This document shows positions 10,801-51,766 of a DNA stretch of 64,000 bases, piece after piece. Every line of letters starts with the position of its first letter. Within the stretch, counting starts at the first letter, position 1. This stretch comes from an uncultured Gammaproteobacteria bacterium (lineage in GTDB: Bacteria; Patescibacteriota; Patescibacteriia; SBBC01; CAIJZX01). The stretch covers positions 1,923-65,922 of the forward strand of contig CAYNGY010000004.1 of NCBI GenBank assembly GCA_964397195.1. Direction: 5' to 3'. The position numbers and the translations under genes are program-made. The notes under the pieces are model-generated. The model was not told the origin of the DNA and made no database searches. It saw only the letters and a program-made list of their open reading frames with translations.

Positions 10801-11232
10801 GAATTAATGATGTTCGTCCGCCTCGAGGACCACACCGGATCGGCCGAAGCCGTCATTTTCCCAAAAACCTACGCCGCGACATCAGCCATGTGGGAACCTG
10901 ATCGATTGGTGGTCGTCGAAGGGCAAGCCGATCAACGTGATAGCGAATGGAAAATTCTGGTTGACAAAGTTTGGGACCTAAAAACGCTCGCCGCCCAAAA
11001 GAAACCGGCCAAAAAAATACGGATCCGAGTCGATTTGACCACCGCCACCCCAGCCATTTTTGCCAGTTTACGTGACATATTAGGTCGTTTTCCTGGCCCG
11101 ACACCAGTCGAACTGCATGCAGTGCGTGGGACACAATCCAAGGCTATGCCAACCGAGTTTTCCATCGCCCTTACGCCGGAGGCTCGAGAGCATTTGGAGT
11201 CATTGCTCGGAGAGTGTATCCTACCTGAGTAA
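7813..11232 (+). CDS. dnaE: DNA polymerase III alpha subunit
   Basis: PHP domain (LHVHSHFSLLDG), polIII alpha core, OB-fold C-terminus. 1139 aa from ATG 7813. Confidence 0.95.
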   Translation: MSTSFVNLHVHSHFSLLDGLPKIDELVTCAKEQGATALALTDHGNLYGAIEFYQKATAAGIKPIIGVEIYVAPNKHTEKRPKVDEHAYHLTLLAENNTGYRNLIALVTAAHLEGFYYKPRVDHDLLAKHAEGVIALSGCLKGEIAGAILSGRDSEARKLIAWYQEAFGPKNFFLELQDHPTIPEQGKLNTALIAYGQELGIPLVATTDSHYLRPDDAEAQDILLCIHMKRQISDPDRLSMRHADFSLRPADDMIAAFSHVPAAITNTVAIAERCDVTIKLGQVQLPHYQVPAGQTAEQYLRQLAEEGIPRRYGSETPAVRERLEYELSVIDKTGFASYFLIVQDFVNWSKQHGIIVGPGRGSAAGSIVSYLLNITNVDPIMYDLLFERFLNPERIAMPDIDIDFADTRRDEVIRYVESRYGKDHVAQIITFGTMAARAAIRDVGRVLGFPYTYCDRVAKLIPMFSSLSQALEHVPELKEIYENDEEAKRLIDGAMKLEGVARHASRHACGVVITKDPLIANVPLQYAGPDDDSIISQYSLHPIEDLGLLKMDFLGLSNLTILETCLQMIQKSRGITIDLDTIPLEDKKTFRLLQRGETTGVFQLESSGMKRYLRELKPTSIEDIIAMVALYRPGPMELIPQFIAGKHGTYKPTYLDPRLKPILEKTYGVAVYQEQVMQMARDVAGFTLGEADVLRKAVGKKIMKLLQEQKEKFVEGAVKNGVKKLAAEKIFEFIEPFARYGFNRSHAACYAVIAYQTAYCKANYPAEFMAALLTSDQHNTDRIAIEIEEARRMQLEVLAPDINQSEGSFTVHADDKKKFTKIRFGLNAIKNVGEHLVEAIIAERSSGPFVSIEDLLRRVQHKDLNKKSLESLIKVGALENWGERQTLLTNLPELLKFAKTISEEIARKQTNLFGALPVAFSPTIRLAPAEPASRGTRSQWEKDLLGFYLTDHPLNEHRDVLAGLTLPIQEAREKRGRGIKIGGLISSVKRISTKRNELMMFVRLEDHTGSAEAVIFPKTYAATSAMWEPDRLVVVEGQADQRDSEWKILVDKVWDLKTLAAQKKPAKKIRIRVDLTTATPAIFASLRDILGRFPGPTPVELHAVRGTQSKAMPTEFSIALTPEAREHLESLLGECILPE

Positions 11233-12338
11233 TGCCGCCGCTCACTTCTATCCGACTTCAACGGTCGTTTACTCCCCTCCTCATCGGTTTTCTTATTGTT
11301 GGCGCGTTGATATTTGGAGTGGCGCTCCTGTACACCGACGCCACCACCACCATCACGATCACCCCGCTCCAAAAACAGATCACCACAAGTTTCTCCATTC
11401 CCGTTCAAACTGGCTCTGCGGTTGACGAACAAGCGCTTTCGGCAACCATCGCCAACGAGCCGCTGAAAGCTACCGTCAGTGTCCCCGCCTCCGCTGAGGG
11501 CGAATTAGTTGACGCGCACGCGACCGGTACAATGACCGTTCTTAACACCACGAGCACTGCACAGACACTCGCCGCCACCACTCGCTTTCGTTCCACCGAC
11601 GGTATTATCGTCCGCAGCACAAAACGCGTCGACGTCCCAGGTAAGGGACAGGTCGAGGTACCCGTCATCGCCGACCCCATTGGGGTGAGCGGAAATGTTG
11701 CCGCGGGGAAATTCACCATCGTCGCCCTCTGGCCGGGGTTGCAGGCCAGTATCTACGGACAAACATCAGCCGCTATGACAGGCGGCCAGGTTCGACAAGG
11801 CTCAACCCTCAGCGCGGATGACTTGAACGCGGCGAGTACCAAGGCCCGTGAAGAAATAGCTACAACCTTCGGTACATCCTCCTCGGGAACAATCAAGTTC
11901 GTCACCCCAAAATCGGTCACGACAAATCCGGCGGCAAATAAACCAAGTGATTCGTACGCCGTAACGGTCACCATGACGGGAACCACCGTCACCTATAATC
12001 CGAAGGATCTTGAGTCGTTTGTGCGGACAAAATTGGCAAAGGAAGTCCCCACCGGTTTCTTATTGCAATCATTTGAACAGCCAACCATCACCCAAACTAG
12101 CGATCTAGACCTGACCCTGCGCATCGAGGTCAAAGGCTGGGCCGCTCCTGACACGACGGCTGATATCTTCAACGCCGGACTATTCGCCGGGAAGTCTCGT
12201 TCGACGATTACCCAGCTCCTTCTCGAAACTGAGCGGGTCAAGGCGGTCGTCGTCTCCTTTGCCCCCGGCTGGCAAACAACGGCCCCGAACGATCCACAGC
12301 ATATCCGTATCACCTTTACCGACCCGTCGGCGCCTTGA
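11232..12338 (+). CDS. hypothetical Thr/Ser-rich membrane-anchored protein, translationally coupled to dnaE (TAATG overlap)
   Basis: N-terminal TM (LLIGFLIVGALIFGVALLY), then a low-complexity T/S-rich extracellular region. Confidence 0.5.
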   Translation: MPPLTSIRLQRSFTPLLIGFLIVGALIFGVALLYTDATTTITITPLQKQITTSFSIPVQTGSAVDEQALSATIANEPLKATVSVPASAEGELVDAHATGTMTVLNTTSTAQTLAATTRFRSTDGIIVRSTKRVDVPGKGQVEVPVIADPIGVSGNVAAGKFTIVALWPGLQASIYGQTSAAMTGGQVRQGSTLSADDLNAASTKAREEIATTFGTSSSGTIKFVTPKSVTTNPAANKPSDSYAVTVTMTGTTVTYNPKDLESFVRTKLAKEVPTGFLLQSFEQPTITQTSDLDLTLRIEVKGWAAPDTTADIFNAGLFAGKSRSTITQLLLETERVKAVVVSFAPGWQTTAPNDPQHIRITFTDPSAP

Positions 12339-12354: not shown

Positions 12355-12595
12355 TGGGACAATCGGCACAGAGAGCGCGTTGAACGAACTAGCCTCCCTT
12401 ACCTCGGCCCGACAGGAAGCGTAGACCACGACTGAGAGCCTACGCCGGCAACCGCAAGAGAGCACCACTCGCGAGCGCTACGACAATTCGAAAGTGTCCC
12501 GCCGAGTTCGGGAAAATTGGGTGGAACCGCCCTCCAGAAAAAGGGTCCCAAGCATCAAAAATGATGATTGGTTCTTTATGTATAACCCCACGTCT
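12355..12595 (+). promoter_or_regulatory. putative T-box leader (tRNA-Thr sensing) upstream of thrS
   Basis: TGGGTGGAACCGCC at 12518-12531 matches the T-box core AGGGTGGNACCGCG in 12 of 14 positions. Upstream AGAGAG (about 12369) and GTTGA (about 12380) resemble Stem-I K-turn elements. ACC-A (Thr codon plus purine) at about 12409. No obvious intrinsic terminator, so it may act at translation initiation. Confidence 0.35.
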
Positions 12596-14359
12596 ATGTC
12601 AGCGTCATCCGCAAAAAAACCTTCGATCGAAACAATTCGACATACCCTCGCCCATCTCTTGGCCCATGCGGTCCTTGACGCCTACCCAACGGCGAAACTC
12701 GGCGTTGGTCCGGCGATCGAAAATGGTTTTTACTATGACTTTGAACTCTCGCGCCCGCTGACCGAGGCCGACCTGAAACCACTCGAGAAACGGATGCGCC
12801 ACTTGATCCAGCAAAACCTGGCCCTGACCAGCGTCGCCGCCAACGACCCGACAGTCACAGCGTACATGGCCCACCAGCCTTTTAAACAAGAACTGCAAAA
12901 AGAGTTTCTCGGTGCGGGACAATCCGTGACCTACTACCAAGTTGGAAAATTTATCGACCTCTGTCGTGGCGGCCATGTCGCCACCACACATGAGATTCCC
13001 GTCGACGCCTTTCACTTGAGCCATGTCGCCGGAGCGTACTGGCGCGGCGATGCCACTCGTCCGATGCTCCAACGCATTTATGGACTAGCCTTCGCCACCA
13101 AGGCCGAACTTGACGCCCATATCGCTCGCCAAGCGGAAGCGAAGAAGCGCGATCACAAAATTCTCGGTCCTCAACTGGATCTCTTCACATTCTCCGAACT
13201 CGTCGGCAGTGGATTACCACTCTGGACCCCGCGTGGAACACTCGTCCGTAATCTCCTTGACGCCTACGTCTGGGAACTTCGTTCGGCGGTCGGCTATGAT
13301 CGTGTCGAAATCCCTCACATCACGAAAAAAGATCTGTACGAAAAGAGTGGCCACTGGCAAAAGTTTCAAGATGAACTATTCAAAATCACCACCCGTGAAG
13401 GCCACGTCTTCGCCATGAAACCGATGAATTGCCCGCATCACACCCAGATCTACAATCGTCGACAACATAGCTACCGCGAACTCCCCCAACGCTACGCCAA
13501 CACCACCATGTGCTACCGTGACGAGCAAAGTGGCGAGCTGGCTGGGATTTCCCGCGCCCGCGCCTTCACCCAAGATGATGCGCACGTCTTTTGTCGCGAA
13601 ATGCAGGTCGAAGACGAGATGCGCAAAATTTGGCATATTATCAACGCCTTTTATAAAGCCTCCGGCTTTGCCCTAAAAGTCCGTCTCTCGCTCCATGACC
13701 CGGCCCACATGGAAAAATACCTCGGCGATGAAAAACGATGGGTCGCGGCGGAAAAACAACTTCGTGCCCTCGCCAGAGCAGAAAACGTCCAGGCACCGGA
13801 AGCAATTGGCGAAGCCGCGTTCTATGGTCCGAAAATAGATTTCATGGCCCAAGACTCAATCGGCCGCGAATGGCAAGTCGCGACGATCCAGCTCGACATG
13901 AACCTGCCGGAGCGTTTCGATCTCACGTGTGTCAACGAAAAAGGAGACCACGAACGAATCGTCATGATTCATGCGGCCATTATGGGATCCATCGAGCGCT
14001 TTCTCTCGATCTTGATTGAACACCACGCCGGCGCCTTCCCGCTCTGGCTTTGCCCGGTCCAAGTTCAGATCATCCCCGTCACCACGAAGCACATGGCGAT
14101 CGGCCGAAAATTACAGAAAACCATCGCCGCCGCCGGACTGCGGGTCGTCCTTGATGAATCGAATGACACTGTCGGATACAAAATTCGCCGGGCGGAAAAA
14201 GAAAAGATCCCGTACATGATTGTCGTCGGCGATAAAGAAAAAAGCTTACGTCAAGTCGCTGTCCGTATTCGCGGAAAGCAGGATGTCAAAAAAGTTACAC
14301 TCACCGCCTGGTTGAAACAACTTCAACGTGCCATTGAAAAAAAATCACTCGCACTCTAG
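12596..14359 (+). CDS. thrS: threonyl-tRNA synthetase (lacks the N-terminal TGS domain)
   Basis: Starts in the N2/editing domain (IRHTLAHLLAHAVLDAYPTAKLGVGPAIENGFYYDF), class II motifs, C-terminal anticodon-binding domain. Confidence 0.9.
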   Translation: MSASSAKKPSIETIRHTLAHLLAHAVLDAYPTAKLGVGPAIENGFYYDFELSRPLTEADLKPLEKRMRHLIQQNLALTSVAANDPTVTAYMAHQPFKQELQKEFLGAGQSVTYYQVGKFIDLCRGGHVATTHEIPVDAFHLSHVAGAYWRGDATRPMLQRIYGLAFATKAELDAHIARQAEAKKRDHKILGPQLDLFTFSELVGSGLPLWTPRGTLVRNLLDAYVWELRSAVGYDRVEIPHITKKDLYEKSGHWQKFQDELFKITTREGHVFAMKPMNCPHHTQIYNRRQHSYRELPQRYANTTMCYRDEQSGELAGISRARAFTQDDAHVFCREMQVEDEMRKIWHIINAFYKASGFALKVRLSLHDPAHMEKYLGDEKRWVAAEKQLRALARAENVQAPEAIGEAAFYGPKIDFMAQDSIGREWQVATIQLDMNLPERFDLTCVNEKGDHERIVMIHAAIMGSIERFLSILIEHHAGAFPLWLCPVQVQIIPVTTKHMAIGRKLQKTIAAAGLRVVLDESNDTVGYKIRRAEKEKIPYMIVVGDKEKSLRQVAVRIRGKQDVKKVTLTAWLKQLQRAIEKKSLAL

Positions 14360-15257
14360 GCGCACCATTGTCGTTATCCTGGGCCCGACCTCAAGCGGCA
14401 AATCAGCGCTCGGTATCGCCTTGGCCCGACAATTCAACGGCCTGATTATTTCCGCGGATTCGCGGCAGGTCTACCGCGGACTCAATATTGGTTCCGGCAA
14501 AGTCACCAAGCGAGAACAGCGGCTCGCTCCGCATGTCCTCCTCGATGTCGCCTCACCTCGCCGACAATATTCCGTGGCCCATTTCGTTCGAGATGCACTA
14601 CGCGCAATCAACGCCACCCCAACGACCGTCCCTATCTTTATTGTCGGTGGAACACCCTACTACATCAGCGCCCTACTCGGCGAACAGCAGTTTTCTGATG
14701 TTCCACCAGATCACCACGTCCGTGCCCGCCTAGCCACCAAAACACTCCCCGAACTCCAAAGCGAATTACGACGCCTTGACCCGAAACGGTACCGCACAAT
14801 CGACCGGCTGAACCCTCGTCGTTTGATCCGCGCGATTGAAATCGCCAACGCACATATACCCCCCGAGGGTATGTCTCCGGTCATCGATCGTCGTGATTGG
14901 CGCGTCCTGAAAATTGGACTATCACTCCCCCGTCAAAAACTCTACACCCGCATCGACCGCCGCCTTGATGCGCGTATTCGTCAGGGCATGGTCGCCGAAG
15001 TCCGAGCCCTGCACGAGCGTGGGCTGAGCTGGAAACGTCTTGATGCGTTCGGACTTGAATACCGTTTTATCAGCCGCTTCCTCCGCCATCAATACACCAA
15101 GCCGGAAGCCATCCAATTCCTGAAGGGCGCCATCCACGACTTCACCCGGCGCCAACTGACCTGGTGGCGGAAAGACACCACGATACACTGGATACCCAAA
15201 CCAGACCGCGCTAGCGGCCTCGTTATGCGCTTCCTCCGCGCCTCAGACGCCGAGTGA
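14328..15257 (+). CDS. miaA: tRNA dimethylallyltransferase
   Basis: P-loop GPTSSGKS, IPPtase family. Overlaps the thrS 3' end by 32 nt. Confidence 0.85.
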   Translation: MPLKKNHSHSRRTIVVILGPTSSGKSALGIALARQFNGLIISADSRQVYRGLNIGSGKVTKREQRLAPHVLLDVASPRRQYSVAHFVRDALRAINATPTTVPIFIVGGTPYYISALLGEQQFSDVPPDHHVRARLATKTLPELQSELRRLDPKRYRTIDRLNPRRLIRAIEIANAHIPPEGMSPVIDRRDWRVLKIGLSLPRQKLYTRIDRRLDARIRQGMVAEVRALHERGLSWKRLDAFGLEYRFISRFLRHQYTKPEAIQFLKGAIHDFTRRQLTWWRKDTTIHWIPKPDRASGLVMRFLRASDAE

Positions 15258-16730
15258 CTTTTTGAGAACTTCTAACGCCACCTGCGGGTTGGCCTTGCCT
15301 TTCGATTGCTTCATCACCTGCCCGACGAGAAATTGGACCCCGACGGTTTTTCCCGCCCGAATCTCGGCCACCACTTTTTCATTCGCCGCAATGACGGTCG
15401 TCACAATTTCCTGTAACCCCGAGAGGTCACTCATCTGTTCAAGTCCAAGTTCTTTCACGAGCAAATGCGGACCTTTTTTCGTCAGGCGCATCTGTTCATA
15501 GACGGTTTGTGCCGCCGCAGCATTTATCATTCCCTGTCGAAACATCCAGAGCAATCGCGCCATATCGGCGGCCGGGACACTCAGTCCGTGTGTATCGCGA
15601 TGTTCAACAGAAATTTTATTCAATAACCAGTTGGCAATCGCCCGGCGAATATCATTTCCCGTCTCGGCAAATAATCGCGCCGCTTCCTCGGCCGACAGTT
15701 CGGCTTCAGCGTACGCCCGGTATTCGCTCACCACATCTTCAAAATACGCCGCCAACGCCTTATCACGGACCAAAACATCAGCCTGATCGACGGTCAACCC
15801 ATACTGTTCATGAAAACGAGCGCGTCGATCCGCTGGCAGTTCGGGAATAGCCTGTCGAAGTATATCCAACTCGTCGTTGGTAAGTCGTATGGGCGGAATA
15901 TCCGGCTCCGGAAAATACCGATAATCGGCCTCACCTTCTTTGGTTCGCTGTTCTTTTGTGGTTCCGCTCAATTCATCCCAGCCTCGGGTTGATGACGTCG
16001 TCGGGGCCGACCCTTCTTCCCACAGCGCCGACTGCCGAGATATTTCGTACGTTAACGCCGACTCAAGAGCTTTAAAAGAGTTGATATTCTTAATCTCCGT
16101 TTTCGGGTAGAGCGTCGTCTCGCCGACCGGACGGAGCGAAATGTTTGCATCACAACGCAAATGCCCTTTTTCCATATCGGCATCCGAAACTCCAAGGTAT
16201 CGGGCAATCAATTGTAGCTCTTCGGCGTAGGTCCGTGCTTCGAGCGGCGTACGAAAATCCGGCTCACTCACAATTTCCATCAACGGCGTTCCGGCCCGGT
16301 TGAGATCAACCAGGGAATACTTCTGACCGCTCGGGTGAATCAGTTTTCCGGCGTCTTCTTCAAGGTGGAGTCGATGGATGCGAAACGCCCGCAGTTCGCC
16401 ACCAATCGGAACCGTCACCTTGCCCGCAAAGCCAAACGGCAGATCATATTGGCTGACCTGGTAGCCCTTCGGCAGATCCGGATAGAAATACGATTTACGA
16501 TCAAACTTTGAATCTTGGTTGATGGTACAGCCAAGCGCCAATGAGGTCATCACCGCCCAGTCAATCGCCTGTTTGTTCGGTACCGGCAAGGCGCCCGGCT
16601 GACCGGAGCAGACCGGACAAATTGCCGCATTCGGTGCCTGATCGTCGCGATTATCGCATCGACAAAACATCTTCGACGCGGTTTTCAGTTGCACATGGAC
16701 TTCCAGTCCGATAATGGTTTCCAGTTGCAT
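15243..16730 (-). CDS. gatB: Asp-tRNA(Asn)/Glu-tRNA(Gln) amidotransferase subunit B
   Basis: MQLETIIGLEVHVQLKT..., GatB/YqeY C-terminal domain. Confidence 0.9.
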   Translation of the reverse strand: MQLETIIGLEVHVQLKTASKMFCRCDNRDDQAPNAAICPVCSGQPGALPVPNKQAIDWAVMTSLALGCTINQDSKFDRKSYFYPDLPKGYQVSQYDLPFGFAGKVTVPIGGELRAFRIHRLHLEEDAGKLIHPSGQKYSLVDLNRAGTPLMEIVSEPDFRTPLEARTYAEELQLIARYLGVSDADMEKGHLRCDANISLRPVGETTLYPKTEIKNINSFKALESALTYEISRQSALWEEGSAPTTSSTRGWDELSGTTKEQRTKEGEADYRYFPEPDIPPIRLTNDELDILRQAIPELPADRRARFHEQYGLTVDQADVLVRDKALAAYFEDVVSEYRAYAEAELSAEEAARLFAETGNDIRRAIANWLLNKISVEHRDTHGLSVPAADMARLLWMFRQGMINAAAAQTVYEQMRLTKKGPHLLVKELGLEQMSDLSGLQEIVTTVIAANEKVVAEIRAGKTVGVQFLVGQVMKQSKGKANPQVALEVLKKSLGV

Positions 16731-16756
16731 ATCGTCGATATTCTACCGATTTATCG

Positions 16757-16793
16757 ATAAAAAAGAAAGGGGGCCAGCGTTTCCGCCGGACCC
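16757..16793 (-). terminator. intrinsic terminator closing high-GC cassette 1
   Basis: Minus-strand GGGGTCCGGCG-GAAA-CGCTGGCCCC hairpin (GNRA loop) followed by CTTTCTTTTTT. Confidence 0.55.
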
Positions 16794-16809
16794 CGTGAAT
16801 CGGATGTAC

Positions 16810-17046
16810 CTAGGTTCGGCGTGACTTCTTCCGCCGACGTCGGCGGGTGCGCTTGAGATCGAGTGCCAACCACCGCAAATGTGCATCTCGGCACTCCTGA
16901 CGCGGACAACGCTTCAAGTGCTCCCACGCGCTGAGGCGGACGCCGGGATGTGACGGTCGCCCATTCACCCCGACCGTCGCGGCCGTCTGGCGGGCCAGCG
17001 CGCAGGTGATGCCACGCTGGACATGTCGGGCCTTGACGTTCCGCAT
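16810..17046 (-). CDS. small Arg-rich basic protein (78 aa), translationally coupled to thyX
   Basis: ATG 2 nt after the thyX TGA. High GC3. C-terminal RTRRRRRKKSRRT tail. Confidence 0.45.
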   Translation of the reverse strand: MRNVKARHVQRGITCALARQTAATVGVNGRPSHPGVRLSAWEHLKRCPRQECRDAHLRWLALDLKRTRRRRRKKSRRT

Positions 17047-17048
17047 GG

Positions 17049-17852
17049 TCAGACCTTGACGTGGTCGGTACGGGTGACGAAGGAACCGTCGGGCAGGGCC
17101 ACGAGCGTGTAGTCGCCGAACATACTCGGCGCTTCCCGCTGCATGATCTTCAGCACCGCGACGGCGACCTTGCGGATCTCGACCTCGGCGTGCTCACTGC
17201 CCCGCAGCTCGATGAAGTGTCGCAGAGCCCGCGCATTCGCCGTGACGAAGATCTTGGTCTCCGTCGCGTTGGGTAGGACCGACCGCGCCGCCTGCCGCGC
17301 CATCTTCCGGCGCAACGTCTTGTCGGTCACGTACTGGAACTTCTCCTCGAGACCGGCCACGAGCAGATCGTAGCCACGTCGCGCGGCGTTGATCGCATGG
17401 GCCCAGATCGCGTGAAGCGCCGGGTCGTCCGCGATCACGTCCGGCTCGATGTAGTCGGAATCGCTCTCGTCCACGTACCGCTGAGAAAGCTGCGAATACG
17501 AGAAGTGACGATGGCGGATGAGCTCGTGGGTGAACGAGCGGGACGCGCCGGTGATCAGGAAGTTCCAGACGCCGTGCTCGAGGACCGAACCGTGTCCGAC
17601 CTCGATCAGGTGCGACATGAACTCCCCATTCGTCTTGCGACCTCGGCCGTACGACATGTAGCAGACCCGTCCGGCGATCTCGGCCAGCTTCTCAGCGCCG
17701 ACCTCCGTGTCCGTCTCCCAGGTCATGCCTTCGTCCGCCAGGAACCGTTCGATGTCCTCGTCGCAGGTGACCTGCTTTCCGACGAGAAACACCTTCGGCT
17801 CACGACTGATGGCCAGTGTTCCGGCGTAGTCACGCTCGAGCTTCGTGTCCAT
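17049..17852 (-). CDS. thyX: flavin-dependent thymidylate synthase ThyX
   Basis: ThyX signature RHRHFSYSQLSQRY. Start at MDTKLERDY, preceded by SD GGGAGGA. About 63% GC with strong GC3 bias. Confidence 0.85.
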   Translation of the reverse strand: MDTKLERDYAGTLAISREPKVFLVGKQVTCDEDIERFLADEGMTWETDTEVGAEKLAEIAGRVCYMSYGRGRKTNGEFMSHLIEVGHGSVLEHGVWNFLITGASRSFTHELIRHRHFSYSQLSQRYVDESDSDYIEPDVIADDPALHAIWAHAINAARRGYDLLVAGLEEKFQYVTDKTLRRKMARQAARSVLPNATETKIFVTANARALRHFIELRGSEHAEVEIRKVAVAVLKIMQREAPSMFGDYTLVALPDGSFVTRTDHVKV

Positions 17853-17986
17853 GCATCCTCCCCCAACGGTCATCCGTCGCGCAGGTGGTAGATACTGCCT
17901 GTAAGGGGCAACTACTTCACCCCTCTGTTGTGAAGTCGGGAGTAGCCTAGCAGAACAACGGCTCCCCGGTCAAAGGTACTCGACCA

Positions 17987-18041
17987 AACCTTTTATCATA
18001 ACAACATAAACTGAATTTTTGCTGAAAAAGGTCATTTTTTG
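17987..18041 (-). promoter_or_regulatory. AT-rich internal promoter for thyX (extended -10 TGTTATGAT) with upstream ATCTTAGCCAAAAA element
   Basis: Minus-strand TATGAT at 17992-17987 preceded by TGT. The 14-nt element (plus coords 18028-18041) lies exactly 35 nt upstream of the -10, the same element and spacing as in the atp operon promoter. Confidence 0.4.
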
Positions 18042-18103
18042 GCTAAGATAAAAGGAGTCCCCGGACCGCTGTCGCGGCCCAGGGAAGATTCGGATGTGCA
18101 TGA

Positions 18104-18802
18104 TCAGCGTCGCCGGCGCTTGGCCTGTGCCAGGGCCGCGTGGATGAGCTGAGAGGTCTCATTCCAGTCCTCCGGGAGCTCATAGCACGTGTCGCACCGG
18201 GCTTCGTAGGTGATTCCGGCGTTGTTGTACTTCGGGGTGTCCGGCAGGAAGACCGGGTGGAAGCGCGGAACCGGCTGGCCGAACTCGAGTCGCTGCGGAT
18301 ACTCCGCGCCCCAGCGTTCGCACTTCTTACAGCGGGCCTCGAGGAATTCCCGCTGGCCGGGCACCGCGATCAGGTTCGCCATCAACGGGAATGGGACCCC
18401 GCGGAAGTCGACCGGTAACCCGGACAGGAAGAGATTACGACCGGATCGTCGGACGGCCGCCAGCATCTCGAATGCGGCATCTGGCCCCTCGCGAAACGTC
18501 TGCGCGAACTGGACCTCGTCGAAGAAGATGTTCAGCGCATTCGATCGCAGGATATAGCGAGCCATCTGGGTCAGGCTCGACACCGGGATGGTTTCCGGAT
18601 ACTGCGCCTGGATACGACTCTTCACGCCGACCACGGTACGCATCGCCATCCGTGGCTGGAAGAACAAGACCCCGGACCGTTGGTTGGCCGGATCACGCGC
18701 CAGCCCGATCAGTCGGGTGGTTTTACCGGCGGTCATGTTGGCCACGATGATGCGCTGATCACCGAGGGTGTGAGACCGCAACGTTGGGAAGTCCAGCTTC
18801 AT
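18104..18802 (-). CDS. tdk: thymidine kinase
   Basis: P-loop NMTAGKTT, DEVQF, DFRG, and a C-terminal CKKC...CDTC zinc ribbon, all matching TK1-type Tdk. SD GAGGTG 7 nt before ATG 18802. Confidence 0.8.
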   Translation of the reverse strand: MKLDFPTLRSHTLGDQRIIVANMTAGKTTRLIGLARDPANQRSGVLFFQPRMAMRTVVGVKSRIQAQYPETIPVSSLTQMARYILRSNALNIFFDEVQFAQTFREGPDAAFEMLAAVRRSGRNLFLSGLPVDFRGVPFPLMANLIAVPGQREFLEARCKKCERWGAEYPQRLEFGQPVPRFHPVFLPDTPKYNNAGITYEARCDTCYELPEDWNETSQLIHAALAQAKRRRR

Positions 18803-18845
18803 AGTGCACCTCACAGAGAAGGACGGTCAGGGACGGACGGCTATG

Positions 18846-18874
18846 ACCCTATCAAATCCCCTCAGTCTGGTCAA
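18846..18874 (-). promoter_or_regulatory. promoter P3 of high-GC cassette 1 (TTGACC-17-TAGGGT with GGGGATTTGA block)
   Basis: Minus strand TTGACCagactgaGGGGATTTGATAGGGT. Same architecture as P1 (29321) and P2 (51738). Confidence 0.5.
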
Positions 18875-18940
18875 CGCAAAGACTATATCGATCTGTCGAG
18901 TGACACCCAATACGCATGTCAGCCGAAATGTCACTCAAAC

Positions 18941-18970
18941 AAAAACAAAAACGCCCAACGGGCGTTTTTG
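18941..18970. terminator. bidirectional intrinsic terminator downstream of rplA
   Basis: AAAAACAAAAACGCCCAACGGGCGTTTTTG: a 5-bp GC stem flanked by an A-tract and a T-tract. Confidence 0.7.
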
Positions 18971-18983
18971 TGACGATCAGATA

Positions 18984-19661
18984 CTAGGCGGCGATTTTGA
19001 TCCCCGGCCCCATCGAACTAGTCAGGGTCACCGAAGCCAAATATGTTCCCTTCGTTTCCGCTGGCTTGGCTTTCTTGACTGCCTCGAGGAACGCTTCAGC
19101 ATTCGCTTGAATTTGCTCTGCCGAAAATGAGGCCTTCCCAATGATTTGGTGGAGGTTACCCGTTGTATCAGAACGGAAGCTGATTTTTCCGCCGTTCAAG
19201 GCTGTCACCATCGCCGCCGGATCGGCCGTGACGGTTTCGTTCTTTGGGTTCGGCATCAGCCCTTTTGTCCCGAGCGTCTTTGCAATCGGGGCGAGACTTT
19301 TCATCATATCCGGAGTCGCCAAAACGATGTCGAAATTCGTCCGATTCGTTTTTTTGATCTCGGCGATCAAATCGTCGTCACCCACGACCGCAGCTCCGGC
19401 CTCGGTTGCGGCTTTCGCCACGGCGCCCTTCGCAAACACCGCAATGGTCAGCTTCTTCCCGGTCCCGTGCGGCAACGATGCCGTGGCGCGAACCAGCTGC
19501 TCGGCTTTCGTCGGGTCAACACCGAGTCGCACGTGCATTTCGATGCTCGAATCAAACTTGGTGGTCGCGGTCTGTTTCACCAAGGCGACCGCTTCAGTGA
19601 GCGGATAAACCTTCTCCGCCTCGATCAGGCCGTAGGCGGCTTTATAGCGCTTGCTACGCAT
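18984..19661 (-). CDS. rplA: 50S ribosomal protein L1
   Basis: Full-length L1 homolog (…TKFDSSIEMHVRLGVDP…). Confidence 0.9.
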   Translation of the reverse strand: MRSKRYKAAYGLIEAEKVYPLTEAVALVKQTATTKFDSSIEMHVRLGVDPTKAEQLVRATASLPHGTGKKLTIAVFAKGAVAKAATEAGAAVVGDDDLIAEIKKTNRTNFDIVLATPDMMKSLAPIAKTLGTKGLMPNPKNETVTADPAAMVTALNGGKISFRSDTTGNLHQIIGKASFSAEQIQANAEAFLEAVKKAKPAETKGTYLASVTLTSSMGPGIKIAA

Positions 19662-19738: not shown

Positions 19739-20704
19739 TTACGAAATTGGTTGGCCCGTTGGGACGGGTGGTTTTTGGGTTTCCTTACGAATCCGAGCGA
19801 AATGGTACCAGAAGAGCGGAATACCGACAAGGACCAACGGAATCGTGGTGGCGAGGTCGTTCGCTGTCGCCCCAGTATTCGAGTTTTGACGATCGCGATA
19901 GGTCTGCCAGTCTTTCTTCCAAGCCTTGGCCACCGCCACGTCATCCGCCGTAAACCCGCAATTTTTTTCACAGGCGATGACGCTATCAGGCAAGGCGGTC
20001 TCAGTATACAACCCGCCGACGGTTGGAATTGGCATGGTGTTCTTGTTGGCCGTATCAACCTTCAGCGCAACATTGAGAACGGTATTGATCAGCATCGCGC
20101 CGCCCACCACCGCCGTCACCAATCCGGCAAATGCCACGCCGTAGTAGTAGACCGAACGCAATGGCGATGGTTTTGGATGGACAGCGTACTCCTCGGCCGC
20201 GCCCTTGTTCATCCAGTTGATGAAGAGTAGGTAAAGCGGGAGAGCGATAATCAGAATCGCGAGTGCCCCCGCAATCGCCCGACGAGTTTGAATGGAGTAG
20301 GTACTCGTCGACTGCCAGTTCGCATAGGATGTCTTCAGATCGGCAAATGACTGCTTGTCAGCCGCCGTCATTTCGCAATCCGTCGTACAGGCATACGGTT
20401 GTGACGATTGGAATTTCGTATCGGTTGGATTGCCGGTCAGATAAAACGTTGGCGGCGTATTGTAGCGCTGGTTGTATTCCTTCGCCGTCGGCAAGACCGT
20501 TTCCTTCAGCCCAATGACAAGCAATGAGACGAGCGACCCGATGGTCATGACCAACATCAGCAACGAGACGATCGTATAGAACGCCTGTCGATAGCCGTAT
20601 TTCCGCTCCTGACGCATGTCTTGGACAATCGCGACCGCCACCAAGGCTAAGACGCCGACGCCCGCCACCATCATGAGCGGCCCGATGAATGAAAGTGTAT
20701 CCAT
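19739..20704 (-). CDS. polytopic membrane protein with an internally duplicated C-x3-C-x-[MF]TA[AD]D...W[QK] module, inserted between rplK and rplA
   Basis: Five predicted TM helices. Two loops carry ACTTDCEMTAADKQSFADLKTSYANWQ and ACEKNCGFTADDVAVAKAWKKDWQ respectively. Confidence 0.5.
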   Translation of the reverse strand: MDTLSFIGPLMMVAGVGVLALVAVAIVQDMRQERKYGYRQAFYTIVSLLMLVMTIGSLVSLLVIGLKETVLPTAKEYNQRYNTPPTFYLTGNPTDTKFQSSQPYACTTDCEMTAADKQSFADLKTSYANWQSTSTYSIQTRRAIAGALAILIIALPLYLLFINWMNKGAAEEYAVHPKPSPLRSVYYYGVAFAGLVTAVVGGAMLINTVLNVALKVDTANKNTMPIPTVGGLYTETALPDSVIACEKNCGFTADDVAVAKAWKKDWQTYRDRQNSNTGATANDLATTIPLVLVGIPLFWYHFARIRKETQKPPVPTGQPIS

Positions 20705-50226: not shown

Positions 50227-51675
50227 CTACTTCTTCGCGTGAAGCGTGAACGGGACATCGACCACGACGTTCGCCGAGGTCCGGCGGCCGTTCGTGGGTT
50301 CGACCCGCGCTTCGAGGGTGATCGTTGCCAGCGGCAGCGCCACGGCGATGTGGCCATCGATCCGCTGGGTGAACCCACCGCGCGGGGCGTAGCGCACGGG
50401 TTCGAGCCCGCCGCCGAACGTCACCGCGCCATGAGTGTACTGCGCGTCGAGCACCGCACCTTCGGCCAGCGTCAGCCGATGCGTGCGATACGTGAAGACC
50501 ATCGCCCCGAGATCGACCCCGTGACCGGACCAGGCCAGCTTCGCCATCGGTCCGACGTAGGGGTGGACGCCGTCCGGCTTGACGAGCGTCCCGAGCGATC
50601 CACCGACATTCAGCGCCATCGCCGGGTGGGAGAGAAGGTCATAGCGCCCGAACAGGTCGAGCGCACTGCCGTCGGCCATCACCGTCGGATTGACGAGCGT
50701 CCGCCCGCCATCGAAGGTGTAGCCGTACATCGAGCCTCGACCGAAGGCCCACTCGCCCGCCGTCAGGGAGACGGTGTGCGGCGCGGCCACGGCCAGGGTG
50801 AAACCGAACGTCACGAACAGCGCGACGAAGGCGGACAGCAGGACAGCGAAGCGGGACATGCGGCTCTCCTTGAGAGTGGGCGGTGCACGCCCACGAGTGA
50901 TTGATCGTGACGGTGCCGTCACGACCCTCGTGACTGCACCACTGATACCGAGAACGAGCAGAAACACGACCGCCCAGTGCATTGCCGGCGGGAGTTCAGC
51001 CGTCTCGGGTGAAACAGGTGATGCACTCTGACACTGCGTCGAAGCCGTGATCTGCGTCTGCGTCGTCGGGAGGAGCACGGTGGGTGCTTTCCCGATTGTC
51101 AGCACAGACAGTAGCCCGAGCAAGATCAGTAGGTACGGGAACACGAGCATCACCCCCCAGGCCACGCCGCCGCCGATTCCGATCGACGATAGCGTCTTAG
51201 CCAACAGGAGGTACCAACGCCCATGGACCATGCCATACGCATCCAAGTATCCCGGACCCCACTGGCGGTTATGAGGATCGCGGTTGAAGTATCCCGACAT
51301 GCCGGCCGATCCGTAGGCCGTCCATGCCTGGCTCATCAACTCGTCGGTCACCCATTCCTTGCGCACGTGCGTCGAGGCCTTTGTGCCGCCTCCTACCCAG
51401 CGATGCGTCAGGTCGACAAGAATGGCCGGGAAATCGGCATGGTAAACGGTCGGATTCTCCGCCACCAACGCCATCGCCTTGTTCCAGTCTCGCCAGAACT
51501 CGTCCGGGTTTTGCGGATCGAGCAGACCAATCTGCGCCATCGTCCGGCTATGCAACGCACCGTCAGCGACGATCGTCCGCAAGTCGGCCTGAGCCCAGAT
51601 CAGTACCAGCGTGATTACAACACCTCCGATCAAGACCGGAGGACGTAACCAAATGTTGCGCTTCAGAAGAATCAC
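50227..51675 (-). CDS. hypothetical polytopic membrane protein (about 483 aa), high-GC cassette 3
   Basis: About 65% GC. The track start (ATG 51747) lies inside the promoter -10. Preferred start is GTG 51675 after SD AAAAGGGGG. Five or more TM helices, then a C-terminal secreted-type domain. Confidence 0.5.
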   Translation of the reverse strand: MILLKRNIWLRPPVLIGGVVITLVLIWAQADLRTIVADGALHSRTMAQIGLLDPQNPDEFWRDWNKAMALVAENPTVYHADFPAILVDLTHRWVGGGTKASTHVRKEWVTDELMSQAWTAYGSAGMSGYFNRDPHNRQWGPGYLDAYGMVHGRWYLLLAKTLSSIGIGGGVAWGVMLVFPYLLILLGLLSVLTIGKAPTVLLPTTQTQITASTQCQSASPVSPETAELPPAMHWAVVFLLVLGISGAVTRVVTAPSRSITRGRAPPTLKESRMSRFAVLLSAFVALFVTFGFTLAVAAPHTVSLTAGEWAFGRGSMYGYTFDGGRTLVNPTVMADGSALDLFGRYDLLSHPAMALNVGGSLGTLVKPDGVHPYVGPMAKLAWSGHGVDLGAMVFTYRTHRLTLAEGAVLDAQYTHGAVTFGGGLEPVRYAPRGGFTQRIDGHIAVALPLATITLEARVEPTNGRRTSANVVVDVPFTLHAKK

Positions 51676-51737
51676 CCCCTTTTCGCGCGAAGATGATCCG
51701 GCGAGAATGCCGGATGTATGCAAATGTGCGACCCCGC

Positions 51738-51766
51738 AAACTATCATAAATCCCCGGTTTTGTCAA
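51738..51766 (-). promoter_or_regulatory. promoter P2 (TTGACA-17-TAGTTT with CCGGGGATTTATGA block)
   Basis: Minus strand cTTGACAaaaCCGGGGATTTATGATAGTTT. Nearly identical to P1 and P3. Confidence 0.5.

Follow-up and report, generated by a model that had tools for sequence, protein, structure and literature searches.

Between rplA and gatB, on the minus strand, lie three open reading frames in the order tdk, thyX and orf78, whose GC content is well above the mean of the window, i.e. the whole 64,000-nucleotide stretch of DNA analysed here. This raises the question of whether they entered the genome together as a foreign module or have separate histories. The preliminary description of the locus favoured joint arrival: a horizontally acquired thymidylate module of the phage or actinophage type, domesticated later. 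The present analysis points to another answer, which is considered probable: the frames would belong to a conserved dTMP/dTTP cassette of the rplA-gatB interval that turns over in place, tdk being native and thyX an import that replaced a resident thyX.

Gene content, composition and transcription signals of the locus

Judged by RplA, the host is a Kerfeldbacteria-like CPR genome, its best match (a Ca. Kerfeldbacteria MAG) being at most 75 % identical. The upstream anchor of the interval is rplA, encoding ribosomal protein L1 (18984..19661, minus strand; Pfam Ribosomal_L1, E=7e-57) and the downstream anchor is gatB (15243..16730, minus strand; Pfam GatB_N, E=9e-112). Between them, also on the minus strand, are tdk for a divergent TK1-type thymidine kinase of 232 aa (18104..18802; recognized by Pfam TK and predicted fold), thyX for a flavin-dependent thymidylate synthase of 267 aa (17049..17852; TIGR02170 and Thy1 PF02511) and orf78, an Arg-rich frame of 78 aa whose reality is uncertain (16810..17046; called from its open frame and position). 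The gene positions as first read, and the identities and motifs of tdk and thyX, were confirmed by Pfam and the translations. The likely start of tdk is the ATG at 18802, as in P0121, the longest ORF beginning with GTG at 18814; that of thyX is the ATG at 17852, as in P0001, with a GGAGGA Shine-Dalgarno sequence ahead of it. The start of orf78 does lie 2 nt past the thyX stop (TGAccATG).

The high GC content and strong third-position GC (GC3) first attributed to all three ORFs were borne out by computation against the window. The GC content of tdk, thyX and orf78 is 63.0, 63.5 and 66.7 %, respectively, in comparison to a window mean of 54.4 %. Their GC3 values are 0.81, about 0.85-0.86 and 0.75, versus 0.60 +/- 0.055 for the 49 other ORFs, which gives z-scores of 3.7 for tdk, 4.5 for thyX and 2.6 for orf78. 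The tdk-thyX spacer, its span corrected here to 17853-18103, had been called AT-rich; this holds for a 71-nt core with 30 % GC (17990-18060, within the AT-richer leader 17853..18057, minus strand, delimited by sequence and composition), but not for the spacer overall, which has 50 % GC. Since the spacer is similar in composition to the rest of the intergenic sequence at this locus, the later domestication that had been read from it is a needless assumption.

The three genes had also been described as a single transcription unit running from a promoter P3 to a GNRA-loop terminator. The intrinsic terminator after rplA (18945..18971, minus strand), already recognized in that description, is strong: it consists of an A-tract, a 12-bp perfect stem and a T-tract, was called by the terminator scan, folds with z=-2.8 and was also found as the 12-nt perfect inverted repeat I15. 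The candidate tdk promoter P3 (18840..18874, minus strand; TTGACC, 17 nt, TGaTAGGGT) was read by eye, and the thyX leader holds, besides GGAGGA, an extended -10-like match, TGtTATGAT. A consensus scan of 16600-19100 called no sigma-70-like promoter, which leaves P3 and the spacer promoter as eye-matches under the scan threshold.

A stable hairpin (18058..18085, minus strand) lies 18 nt past the tdk stop. Its stem of 12 bp, 9 of them GC, is followed by CUCCUUUUAU, a weak U-tract; its folding energy is -25.8 kcal/mol (z=-3.6), none of 200 shuffled sequences folded equally well, and the terminator scan matched it. This hairpin is likely a terminator, possibly a leaky one, parting tdk from thyX. 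Because of it the single unit is unsupported, and tdk and thyX-orf78 probably constitute two transcription units. The GNRA-loop terminator claimed downstream of orf78 is present as a GAAA-loop hairpin with a U-tract (16759..16794, minus strand; a fold with a 10-pair stem and one bulge, then UUUCUUUUUU), though the strict scan made no call there; it is the predicted terminator of the thyX-orf78 unit, just ahead of the gatB start. A search of the leaders against Rfam gave no match at gathering level, the terminator hairpin alone producing, at E<=1, a sub-threshold match to an sRNA (BjrC68, 22 bits versus 39), and the thyX leader/spacer folded no better than its shuffles (z=0.18).

The rplA-gatB slot and its thymidine kinase

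The rplA context is syntenic in all 80 loci compared, and the order secE-nusG-rplK-DUF5671-rplA ... gatB-miaA-thrS is common to the relatives. The slot counts are based on the 44 loci in which gatB follows downstream of rplA: 43 carry one or more dTMP/dTTP genes in the gap, in varying combinations, and tmk is there in 42 of the 44 but not in the slot of the window. The repertoire comprises tmk, thyX (in three forms) or thyA+folA, tdk, dut, dcd and the dCMP deaminase gene; Pfam analysis of 20 proteins from relatives confirmed tmk, short and long Thy1, ThyA, DHFR, TK, dUTPase, DCD and dCMP deaminase. The order rplA-tdk-(tmk)-thyX-small ORF-gatB recurs in L011, L012, L089, L090 and L091, and tdk and thyX share the slot in about five relatives (L010, L011, L012, L074, L089, L090). 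The reading of the genes as an inserted island is at odds with this conservation of the rplA...gatB arrangement. No remnants of tmk, thyA, folA, dut, dcd or a long ThyX were detected in the spacer, orf78 or the window (E<0.1).

It is the gap itself, in Kerfeldbacteria-like genomes and in many other Patescibacteria, that would constitute the fixed address of the cassette, with gene content changing by replacement in place and with tmk, the usual companion, missing here. Should tmk be missing from the whole genome, this would bear on the dTTP supply of the symbiont. The cassette resembles thyA-folA and other dNTP-synthesis clusters in grouping dCMP deaminase or dcd, dut, thy, tmk and tdk, and differs from them in that, over a broad sampling of Patescibacteria, a gene for a ribosomal protein and gatB bracket it. 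No description of an rplA-dTMP genes-gatB neighbourhood was found in the literature searched. Such an address offers a natural series for the study of non-orthologous and xenologous displacement in minimal genomes.

The thymidine kinase (TK) encoded in the slot is a divergent one. It matches TK PF00265 with E=1.5e-14 (54.6 bits versus a cut-off of 20.6), scores under all three NCBIfam equivalog cut-offs (best 68.5 versus 183) and displays the DFRG motif and two CxxC pairs, CKKC and CDTC. In its AF2 model (pLDDT 86) an alpha/beta P-loop domain is joined to a predicted Zn-binding lasso domain with two Cys pairs, and the best Foldseek matches are all thymidine kinases, with 1xx6 at the top (TM 0.88). 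The predicted fold is thus that of the TK1-type kinases of C. acetobutylicum (1xx6), B. cereus (2ja1) and man (TK1, 1xbt), with which the protein shares the P-loop Lys-Thr, the catalytic Glu of DE.QF (here DEVQF), GLP.DFRG, the Arg of the D-x-R segment, and the four-Cys lasso domain. Unlike them, it has a P-loop of the form AxxxxGKT, the first Walker A Gly being replaced by Ala; its whole clade has Ala or Ser in place of the canonical Asp of D-x-R, two positions ahead of that Arg; the lasso carries a longer insert, PQRLEFGxPVPxxHPxFLxDT, and there is an extra C-terminal helix. Its identity to TK1-type kinases is only 22-27 %. The enzyme is predicted to serve the salvage route, converting thymidine and ATP to dTMP.

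Also unlike the TK1-type kinases at large, the clade is tiny and restricted to one genomic slot. HMMER, run exhaustively against 1.84 billion representatives, returned only 8 matches at E<=1e-30, a profile search of 5.8 billion clusters again 8, and a scan of JGI metagenomes for further loci one short contig alone. Every member with visible context sits in the rplA-gatB slot of a Kerfeldbacteria-like genome, straight after rplA or rplA-tmk in L011, L012, L089, L090 and L091, and L004 has tmk-TK. The ranks of TK identity roughly track those of RplA and GatB. Since all clade members with visible context share the slot, tdk is, on comparative grounds, best read as lineage-native and not imported, and a very rare TK1-like clade appears confined to this address.

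Two observations count against a native tdk. Its GC3 excess (z=3.7) is as strong as that of the imported thyX, which is awkward because such an excess should have faded from a gene resident for long, and the nearest relatives by RplA (L006-L009) have no tdk, so that its vertical descent is unproven. The excess recurs, however, in the cassette of L011, L089 and L091 and is therefore no proof of a recent tdk transfer; it may be a property of the cassette itself. Taken on its own, the GC3 anomaly would misclassify a native tdk as foreign.

The same figures bear on an unlikely alternative, in which the whole cassette was swapped within CPR by homologous recombination at the rplA/gatB flanks, the source being a higher-GC Kerfeldbacterium that had already gained the Eisenbacteria-like thyX and lost tmk. 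It would account for the single compositional offset of tdk, thyX and orf78 with sharp drops at both intergenic borders, and the conserved flanks are suitable recombination substrates. The TK gene of L004, which lies on a 61 %-GC contig, has a GC3 of 0.82, and the raised GC3 of the L011, L089 and L091 cassettes relative to their flanks is what lateral spread would yield. Against it, no donor was seen, no TK more than 50 % identical being present among 15 billion proteins; the TK ranks roughly follow the host markers, and in composition the spacer, like both intergenic regions, resembles the host. The present data hardly separate this model from turnover in place with a native tdk.

Rather improbable is a further variant in which the gap is a recombination-prone address with repeated in-place swaps of dTTP genes, the latest of which removed tmk from this genome. 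Such swaps would have drawn on ThyA+FolA and on ThyX proteins of three architectures and several lineages, tdk and tmk having come and gone, and recombination, as GC-biased gene conversion or as serial lateral spread, would have left the raised GC3 of the cassette as its footprint. After the loss of tmk, the TK clade with its altered active site might also phosphorylate dTMP, or the host of the symbiont might supply dTDP/dTTP.

ThyX and its high-GC relatives

The identity of ThyX is clear: the protein matches Thy1 PF02511 with E=1.3e-55 (188.6 bits versus a cut-off of 24.8), scores 174 bits in TIGR02170 against an equivalog cut-off of 87.9, and shows the signature RHRxxSxxxxSxR as RHRHFSYSQLSQRY in its translation. 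It aligns over the full length with mycobacterial and corynebacterial ThyX (PDB 3gwc/2af6 of M. tuberculosis, E=4e-67 for 3gwc, and 3fnn/3ge9), sharing the signature and the ARQAAR..LPNATET and SEHA.VEIR blocks; the stretch of M. tuberculosis ThyX aligned with RHRHFSYSQLSQR does not differ from it. It is predicted to serve the de novo route, from dUMP, CH2-H4folate and NADPH to dTMP. Unlike its mycobacterial-type counterparts, it comes from a CPR genome and is closest (84 %) to proteins of Ca. Eisenbacteria-like high-GC bacteria. An actinobacterial source is disfavoured: the subfamily includes mycobacterial ThyX, yet the one label available for the donors is not Actinobacteria.

The closest sequences, L001-L003, are 84 % identical in aa and 82.5 % in nt, the nt similarity being limited to the thyX CDS (17049-17804). 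The best 120 ThyX matches are 74-84 % identical and about 265 aa long (263-289). The close homologs come from free-living non-CPR bacteria of 70-73 % GC, one of them labelled Ca. Eisenbacteria, and the donor taxon is named from this single NCBI label and the gene context: four donor-clade loci share XdhC / NTP-transferase / LOG / kynureninase / ThyX, followed by FdhD. In a neighbour-joining tree of the best 120 matches only, a sample with ascertainment bias, the window ThyX is nested several nodes deep in the high-GC clade and the slot ThyX of L012 lies outside. With the slot copies of L011, L089 and L090 the window ThyX shares only 37-39 % identity, with that of L012 67 %.

Further traces of transfer are found in the gene itself. 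Among 67 synonymous codon differences from L001, 26 third positions went from GC to AT and 1 from AT to GC, and the donor GC3 is 0.91-0.97 versus 0.86 in the window. This bias indicates GC-to-AT amelioration of an imported allele, which would now be at its beginning. The stop codon, TGA, is donor-like, whereas the CCATG that follows resembles the relatives and matches that of L011. At its N-terminus the protein has 14-16 residues with no relationship to the donor sequences, and no remnants of the donor neighbours FdhD and kynureninase were detected in the spacer, orf78 or the window (E<0.1). From its relatives and codon usage, thyX is judged to be a true xenolog from an unrelated high-GC bacterium, i.e. 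an allele of a free-living Ca. Eisenbacteria-like lineage that would have displaced the resident thyX. The claim of horizontal acquisition thus stands for thyX, with its 84 % match nested in a 70-73 % GC non-CPR clade, but neither for tdk, whose nearest homologs lie within the host lineage, nor for the module as an island.

As a kind of event this is ordinary, lateral transfer and non-orthologous displacement of thymidylate synthases being well documented (Stern et al. 2010, PMC2826268), and thyA transfer into groundwater Patescibacteria has been reported (PMC12455944). As in those cases, a foreign gene takes the place of a thymidylate synthase, and the relatives alternate ThyA+FolA with several ThyX types. 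Unlike in those cases, all replacements fall at one chromosomal address, rplA-gatB, and the exchange is a xenologous one of ThyX for ThyX with an identifiable donor clade.

Joint arrival of tdk, thyX and orf78 from a phage, actinophage or actinobacterium, with later domestication by a host-style promoter, is very improbable. In its favour, the three ORFs are alike in composition (about 63-67 % GC, high GC3), the ThyX subfamily is that of the mycobacterial enzyme, and ThyX is common in actinophages, 1673 phage records giving a match. The best phage ThyX is, however, only 38-45 % identical among GenBank phages and 57-58 % in IMG/VR, compared with 84 % for bacteria, and TK matches 2 GenBank phage records, at about 31 % over half of the protein. 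With distant matches only in both collections and PHROG matches of the generic family kind, phage origin was rejected; the closest relatives of the supposed phage pair are bacterial, those of TK occurring nowhere but in this slot in CPR genomes related to the host. The nt similarity to the donors stays within the thyX CDS. Among the marks of an island, the deviating composition is seen for all three ORFs and nearest homologs outside the host lineage are seen for thyX but not for tdk, orf78 being an orphan; the slot is filled in nearly all relatives. The window holds no tRNA, the borders have no convincing repeats (only short ones at chance level) and no mobility genes, and the neighbours are rplA and gatB.

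It is highly improbable that the 265-aa ThyX is ancestral in Kerfeldbacteria and was passed from there to the high-GC bacteria: the window and the Kerfeldbacteria-like L012 do carry the subtype in the same slot, but in one multiple alignment the two copies resemble each other less (67 %) than each resembles sequences of the high-GC clade (82 and 74 %, respectively), this clade comprises over 120 clusters and has its own stable gene neighbourhood, the substitution bias of the window copy runs from GC to AT, and the other slot ThyX proteins of the relatives are just 31-49 % identical to one another. Equally hard to credit is an assembly or binning artefact, the thyX piece stemming from some co-occurring organism of high GC through a chimeric join, as the abrupt GC jump and the abundance of the donors in the environment might suggest, given that an independent Logan assembly (L005, SRR12487045) has identical rplA-tdk-spacer-thyX junctions (100 % over 1902 nt), thyX is partly ameliorated and only 82.5 % identical in nt to the nearest donor, host genes lie on either side of it on one 80-kb contig, and thyX has the same position in relatives.

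The small frame downstream of thyX

In the replacement of a resident thyX favoured here, orf78 would fill the spot of a small ORF of the relatives. It has no match in Pfam, NCBIfam or PHROG and forms a singleton cluster in the protein collection (NCBI source). Judged by GC1/2/3 pattern, this frame is the most coding-like, but a second one is open too. By position it corresponds to the small Cys-motif ORF between thyX and gatB in L011, L012 and L089, a family with the motif TCxxA ... G[DN]RP ... SAxHVxxCxCxxC, of which orf78 misses the middle Cys. BLASTP against the 78-aa ORF of L089 gave no match, and the similarity to the family is weak (hhalign E=0.49; Smith-Waterman versus shuffles P=0.003-0.01). 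The stop-CCATG junction ahead of orf78 is the same as in L011.

Thymidylate genes between rplA and gatB

On the minus strand of the window secE, nusG and rplK are followed by a gene for a DUF5671 membrane protein (19739-20704), rplA (18984-19661), a thymidine kinase (TK)-family ORF designated tdk (18104-18814; Pfam PF00265, E=1.5e-14), a Thy1-family ORF designated thyX (17049-17873; PF02511, E=1.3e-55), a 78-aa ORF, orf78 (16810-17046), and gatB (15243-16730). The miaA gene and then thrS lie beyond gatB on the plus strand. In the public gene calls both tdk and thyX start at internal ATG codons, 18802 (232 aa, protein P0121) and 17852 (267 aa, P0001), respectively, each preceded by a Shine-Dalgarno-like purine run. 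As an artefact check a separate Logan assembly of run SRR12487045 (L005) was used; it was 100 % identical from secE through rplA and tdk, across the tdk-thyX spacer and into thyX, of which it covers the first 550 nt.

The best RplA relatives (75-58 % identity) come from MAGs labelled Candidatus Kerfeldbacteria or Patescibacteria, and NCBI taxonomy places Kerfeldbacteria within the Parcubacteria group. Many MAGs titled 'uncultured Gammaproteobacteria bacterium' (loci L007, L008, L011 and others) have CPR gene order and an RplA 60-74 % identical to that of Kerfeldbacteria; these titles are evidently wrong. The DUF5671 insertion between rplK and rplA is kept in most Kerfeldbacteria-like loci.

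The relatives share the order nusG-rplK-(DUF5671)-rplA, a gap of 0.9-8.6 kb, gatB and, on the opposite strand, miaA and thrS. The content of the gap was read in two ways, by Pfam scans of 20 gap proteins and by a tblastn panel derived from these and run on all loci. The scans identified thymidylate kinase (encoded by tmk), ThyX, ThyA with DHFR, TK, dUTPase, dCTP deaminase, dCMP deaminase and a small dNMP-kinase-like P-loop protein. ThyX occurred in a short form of about 270-320 aa and a long form of about 540 aa with two Thy1 stretches. According to the tblastn panel, at least one dTMP-pathway gene was present in the gap in 43 of the 44 loci having rplA and a downstream gatB, and tmk in 42; a long ThyX was found in about 17 of these loci, a short ThyX in 6, ThyA in 16 and TK in 10. 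The rplA-gatB gap is therefore a conserved address of dTTP-synthesis genes, the content of which differs even among close relatives: tmk with two ThyX in L006, tmk with a long ThyX in L007-L009, tmk-thyA-folA in L015, tdk-tmk-thyX in L011, L089 and L090, and tmk-tdk-thyX in L012. The preliminary description read the three ORFs as an acquired island wedged in at this point; insertion at an unrelated site is a wrong reading, as the same gap carries dTMP-pathway genes in these relatives. The window lacks tmk both in the slot and in all 64 kb. In L011, L089 and L090 this gene lies between tdk and thyX, and no recognisable remnant was found in the 251-bp tdk-thyX spacer of the window. Likewise, no thyA, folA, dut, dcd or dCMP deaminase gene was found in the slot or the 64-kb window. 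The literature search, which was not exhaustive, returned no description of an rplA-dTMP genes-gatB neighbourhood or of the TK clade described below.

Compared with the window ThrS (12494-14359), the ThrS proteins of L006-L012, L089 and L090 fell into two identity classes (65-73 % and 50-53 %). The class was not predicted by RplA identity, which suggests that this neighbourhood also contains xenologous thrS genes. A gene at 11232-12338 (plus strand) with a Baseplate_J-like domain (PF04865), odd for a non-phage context, adjoins dnaE and thrS, and a PF04865 gene is also found beside thrS in L090 (17425-18100).

Origin of thyX

The window ThyX scored above the TIGR02170 equivalog cut-off and aligned end to end with Mycobacterium tuberculosis ThyX (E=4e-67), and it retains the complete signature motif. 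Its best 120 database matches were 74-84 % identical and about 265 aa long (263-289 aa). The four matches examined in context (84, 80, 79 and 77 % identity) were all on contigs of 70-73 % GC with a common XdhC/NTP-transferase/LOG/kynureninase/ThyX neighbourhood, accompanied in three by a GntR-aminotransferase gene and in three by FdhD after thyX; TonB (L001) and two-component and MFS genes (L086, L087) were found nearby. These carriers, referred to as donors, are free-living, non-CPR bacteria, and NCBI assigns one ThyX cluster of the donor clade to Ca. Eisenbacteria. Neighbour joining placed the window ThyX several nodes deep inside this high-GC clade. Among Kerfeldbacteria, L012 alone has a further ThyX of the subtype; it was outside the best 120 matches, being 67 % identical to the window protein and up to 74 % to clade members. 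The slot ThyX proteins of L011, L089 and L090 showed 37-39 % identity to the window ThyX and 31-49 % among themselves.

Nucleotide similarity to the donors (82.5 %) was confined to the coding region 17049-17804. Synonymous codons differed from those of L001 in 67 cases; in 26 of these the donor has GC where the window has AT, and in 1 the reverse applies. In this comparison GC3 was 0.86 in the window thyX against 0.91-0.97 in the donors. Both are as predicted for a gene that was imported from a high-GC source and has since ameliorated. ThyX is a xenolog. The horizontal acquisition proposed earlier holds for thyX, with a bacterial donor; the phage source does not, phage ThyX being far more distant (38-45 % identity for GenBank phages, 57-58 % for IMG/VR). 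Lateral transfer and non-orthologous displacement have textbook examples in the thymidylate synthases (Stern et al. 2010, PMC2826268), and a 2025 study reported that groundwater Patescibacteria acquired thyA from other community members (PMC12455944). The locus is a fresh instance of this known phenomenon, to which the comparative slot pattern adds modestly.

Native thymidine kinase and base composition of the cassette

A word-indexed search of 5.8 billion clusters with the window TK returned, apart from the query, a single relative at 47 % identity. When 1.84 billion representatives were searched exhaustively with HMMER, 8 proteins passed E<=1e-30 and 33 passed E<=1e-10, a level around which canonical TKs score. 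A TK-clade profile search retrieved 8 proteins, and JGI metagenomes provided one more short contig. Several remote homologs (P0138, P0140, P0192), 441-453 aa long, contain two TK units in tandem. The predicted structure was confident (pLDDT 86), with bacterial and human TK1-type kinases as its best matches (TM up to 0.88). The P-loop Lys-Thr, the Glu of DE.QF, GLP.DFRG and the four lasso cysteines are retained as in canonical TK1-type enzymes, but identity to solved TKs is 22-27 %, NCBIfam equivalog cut-offs were missed, and the Asp of the canonical D-x-R segment is replaced by Ala, as in the rest of the clade.

All clade members with readable surroundings were found in the same slot, directly after rplA in L011, L089, L090 and L091, after rplA-tmk in L012 and after tmk in L004, a 61 %-GC contig. 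TK identities to the window (50, 47, 39 and 35 % for L089, L011, L012 and L090) roughly follow those of RplA (70, 67, 63 and 69 %) and GatB (69, 67, 65 and 67 %). Phage TKs gave 2 matching records, about 31 % identical over half the length. tdk is native to this lineage; the acquisition reading, right for thyX, is wrong for tdk.

The high GC and GC3 reported earlier for the three ORFs were confirmed, the offset from the rest of the window being real: GC is 63.0 % in tdk, 63.5 % in thyX and 66.7 % in orf78 against 54.4 % in the window, and GC3 is 0.81, 0.85 and 0.75 against 0.604 +/- 0.055 in 49 other ORFs (z=3.7, 4.5 and 2.6). The cassettes of L011, L089, L091 and L004 also exceed their own rplA/gatB flanks by 0.1-0.25 in the GC3 of tdk, tmk and thyX: TK 0.78, tmk 0.72 and ThyX 0.84 against RplA 0.62 and GatB 0.55 in L011, TK 0.78 and ThyX 0.77 against 0.57 and 0.51 in L089, and TK 0.72 against 0.57 in L091; little or no excess was seen in L012 and L090. 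Since the orthologous cassettes of relatives are GC3-rich too, the GC3 evidence for import does not extend from thyX to tdk. The main rival explanation is exchange of the whole cassette. At TK identities of no more than 35-50 %, synonymous substitutions have long reached saturation, and the common excess cannot be the residue of one recent transfer; it reflects either an equilibrium specific to the locus or a cassette that has repeatedly spread laterally within the lineage. Candidate causes are biased gene conversion, selection and serial lateral spread.

The strongest compositional outlier outside the cassette, a 506-aa ORF at 50227-51747 (minus strand; 63 % GC, GC3 0.77) with no Pfam domain, may be another acquired gene.

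Transcription units and orf78

A perfect 12-bp hairpin flanked by A- and T-tracts (18945-18971) follows rplA, and a GAAA-loop hairpin with a U-tract (about 16759-16794) follows orf78. A further hairpin of 12 pairs, 9 of them GC, absent from the preliminary description, is located 18 nt past the tdk stop (18058-18085; -25.8 kcal/mol, z=-3.6, no shuffle folding as well), with a short U-run next to it and an AT-rich stretch with a TGtTATGAT match directly downstream. No promoter was called in a consensus scan of 16600-19100, and the leaders matched no Rfam family. The observation in that description is sound except for the single operon, against which the stable hairpin between tdk and thyX argues; the arrangement is closer to that of two units, tdk and thyX-orf78, separated by a possibly leaky terminator, than to that of one operon.

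orf78 starts two bases after the thyX stop. It has no Pfam match and is an orphan, forming a cluster of its own that came into the collection from the NCBI source. Of the frames in the region, that of orf78 shows the GC1/GC2/GC3 pattern most typical of coding DNA, but one other frame likewise remains open over the whole length. In tdk-bearing relatives the stretch from thyX to gatB contains one or two small ORFs of 59-78 aa (L011, 13210-13437; L012, 13285-13464; two copies in L089, 4333-4515 and 4534-4770). This family has no Pfam matches on record and shares the motif TCxxA ... GDRP ... SAHVxxCxCxxC, with which orf78 is co-linear (ITCALA ... NGRP ... SAWEHLKRCPRQEC), the match being weak (hhalign E=0.49, shuffle P 0.003-0.01). 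The junction reads TGA-CC-ATG in the window and TAG-CC-ATG in L011, and CCA follows the thyX stop also in L012 and L089; in the donors GC or GT stands at this place. The CC common to the window and its relatives hints that the thyX stop may be the 3' breakpoint of the replacement and that orf78 is possibly a degenerate resident small ORF and not donor DNA.
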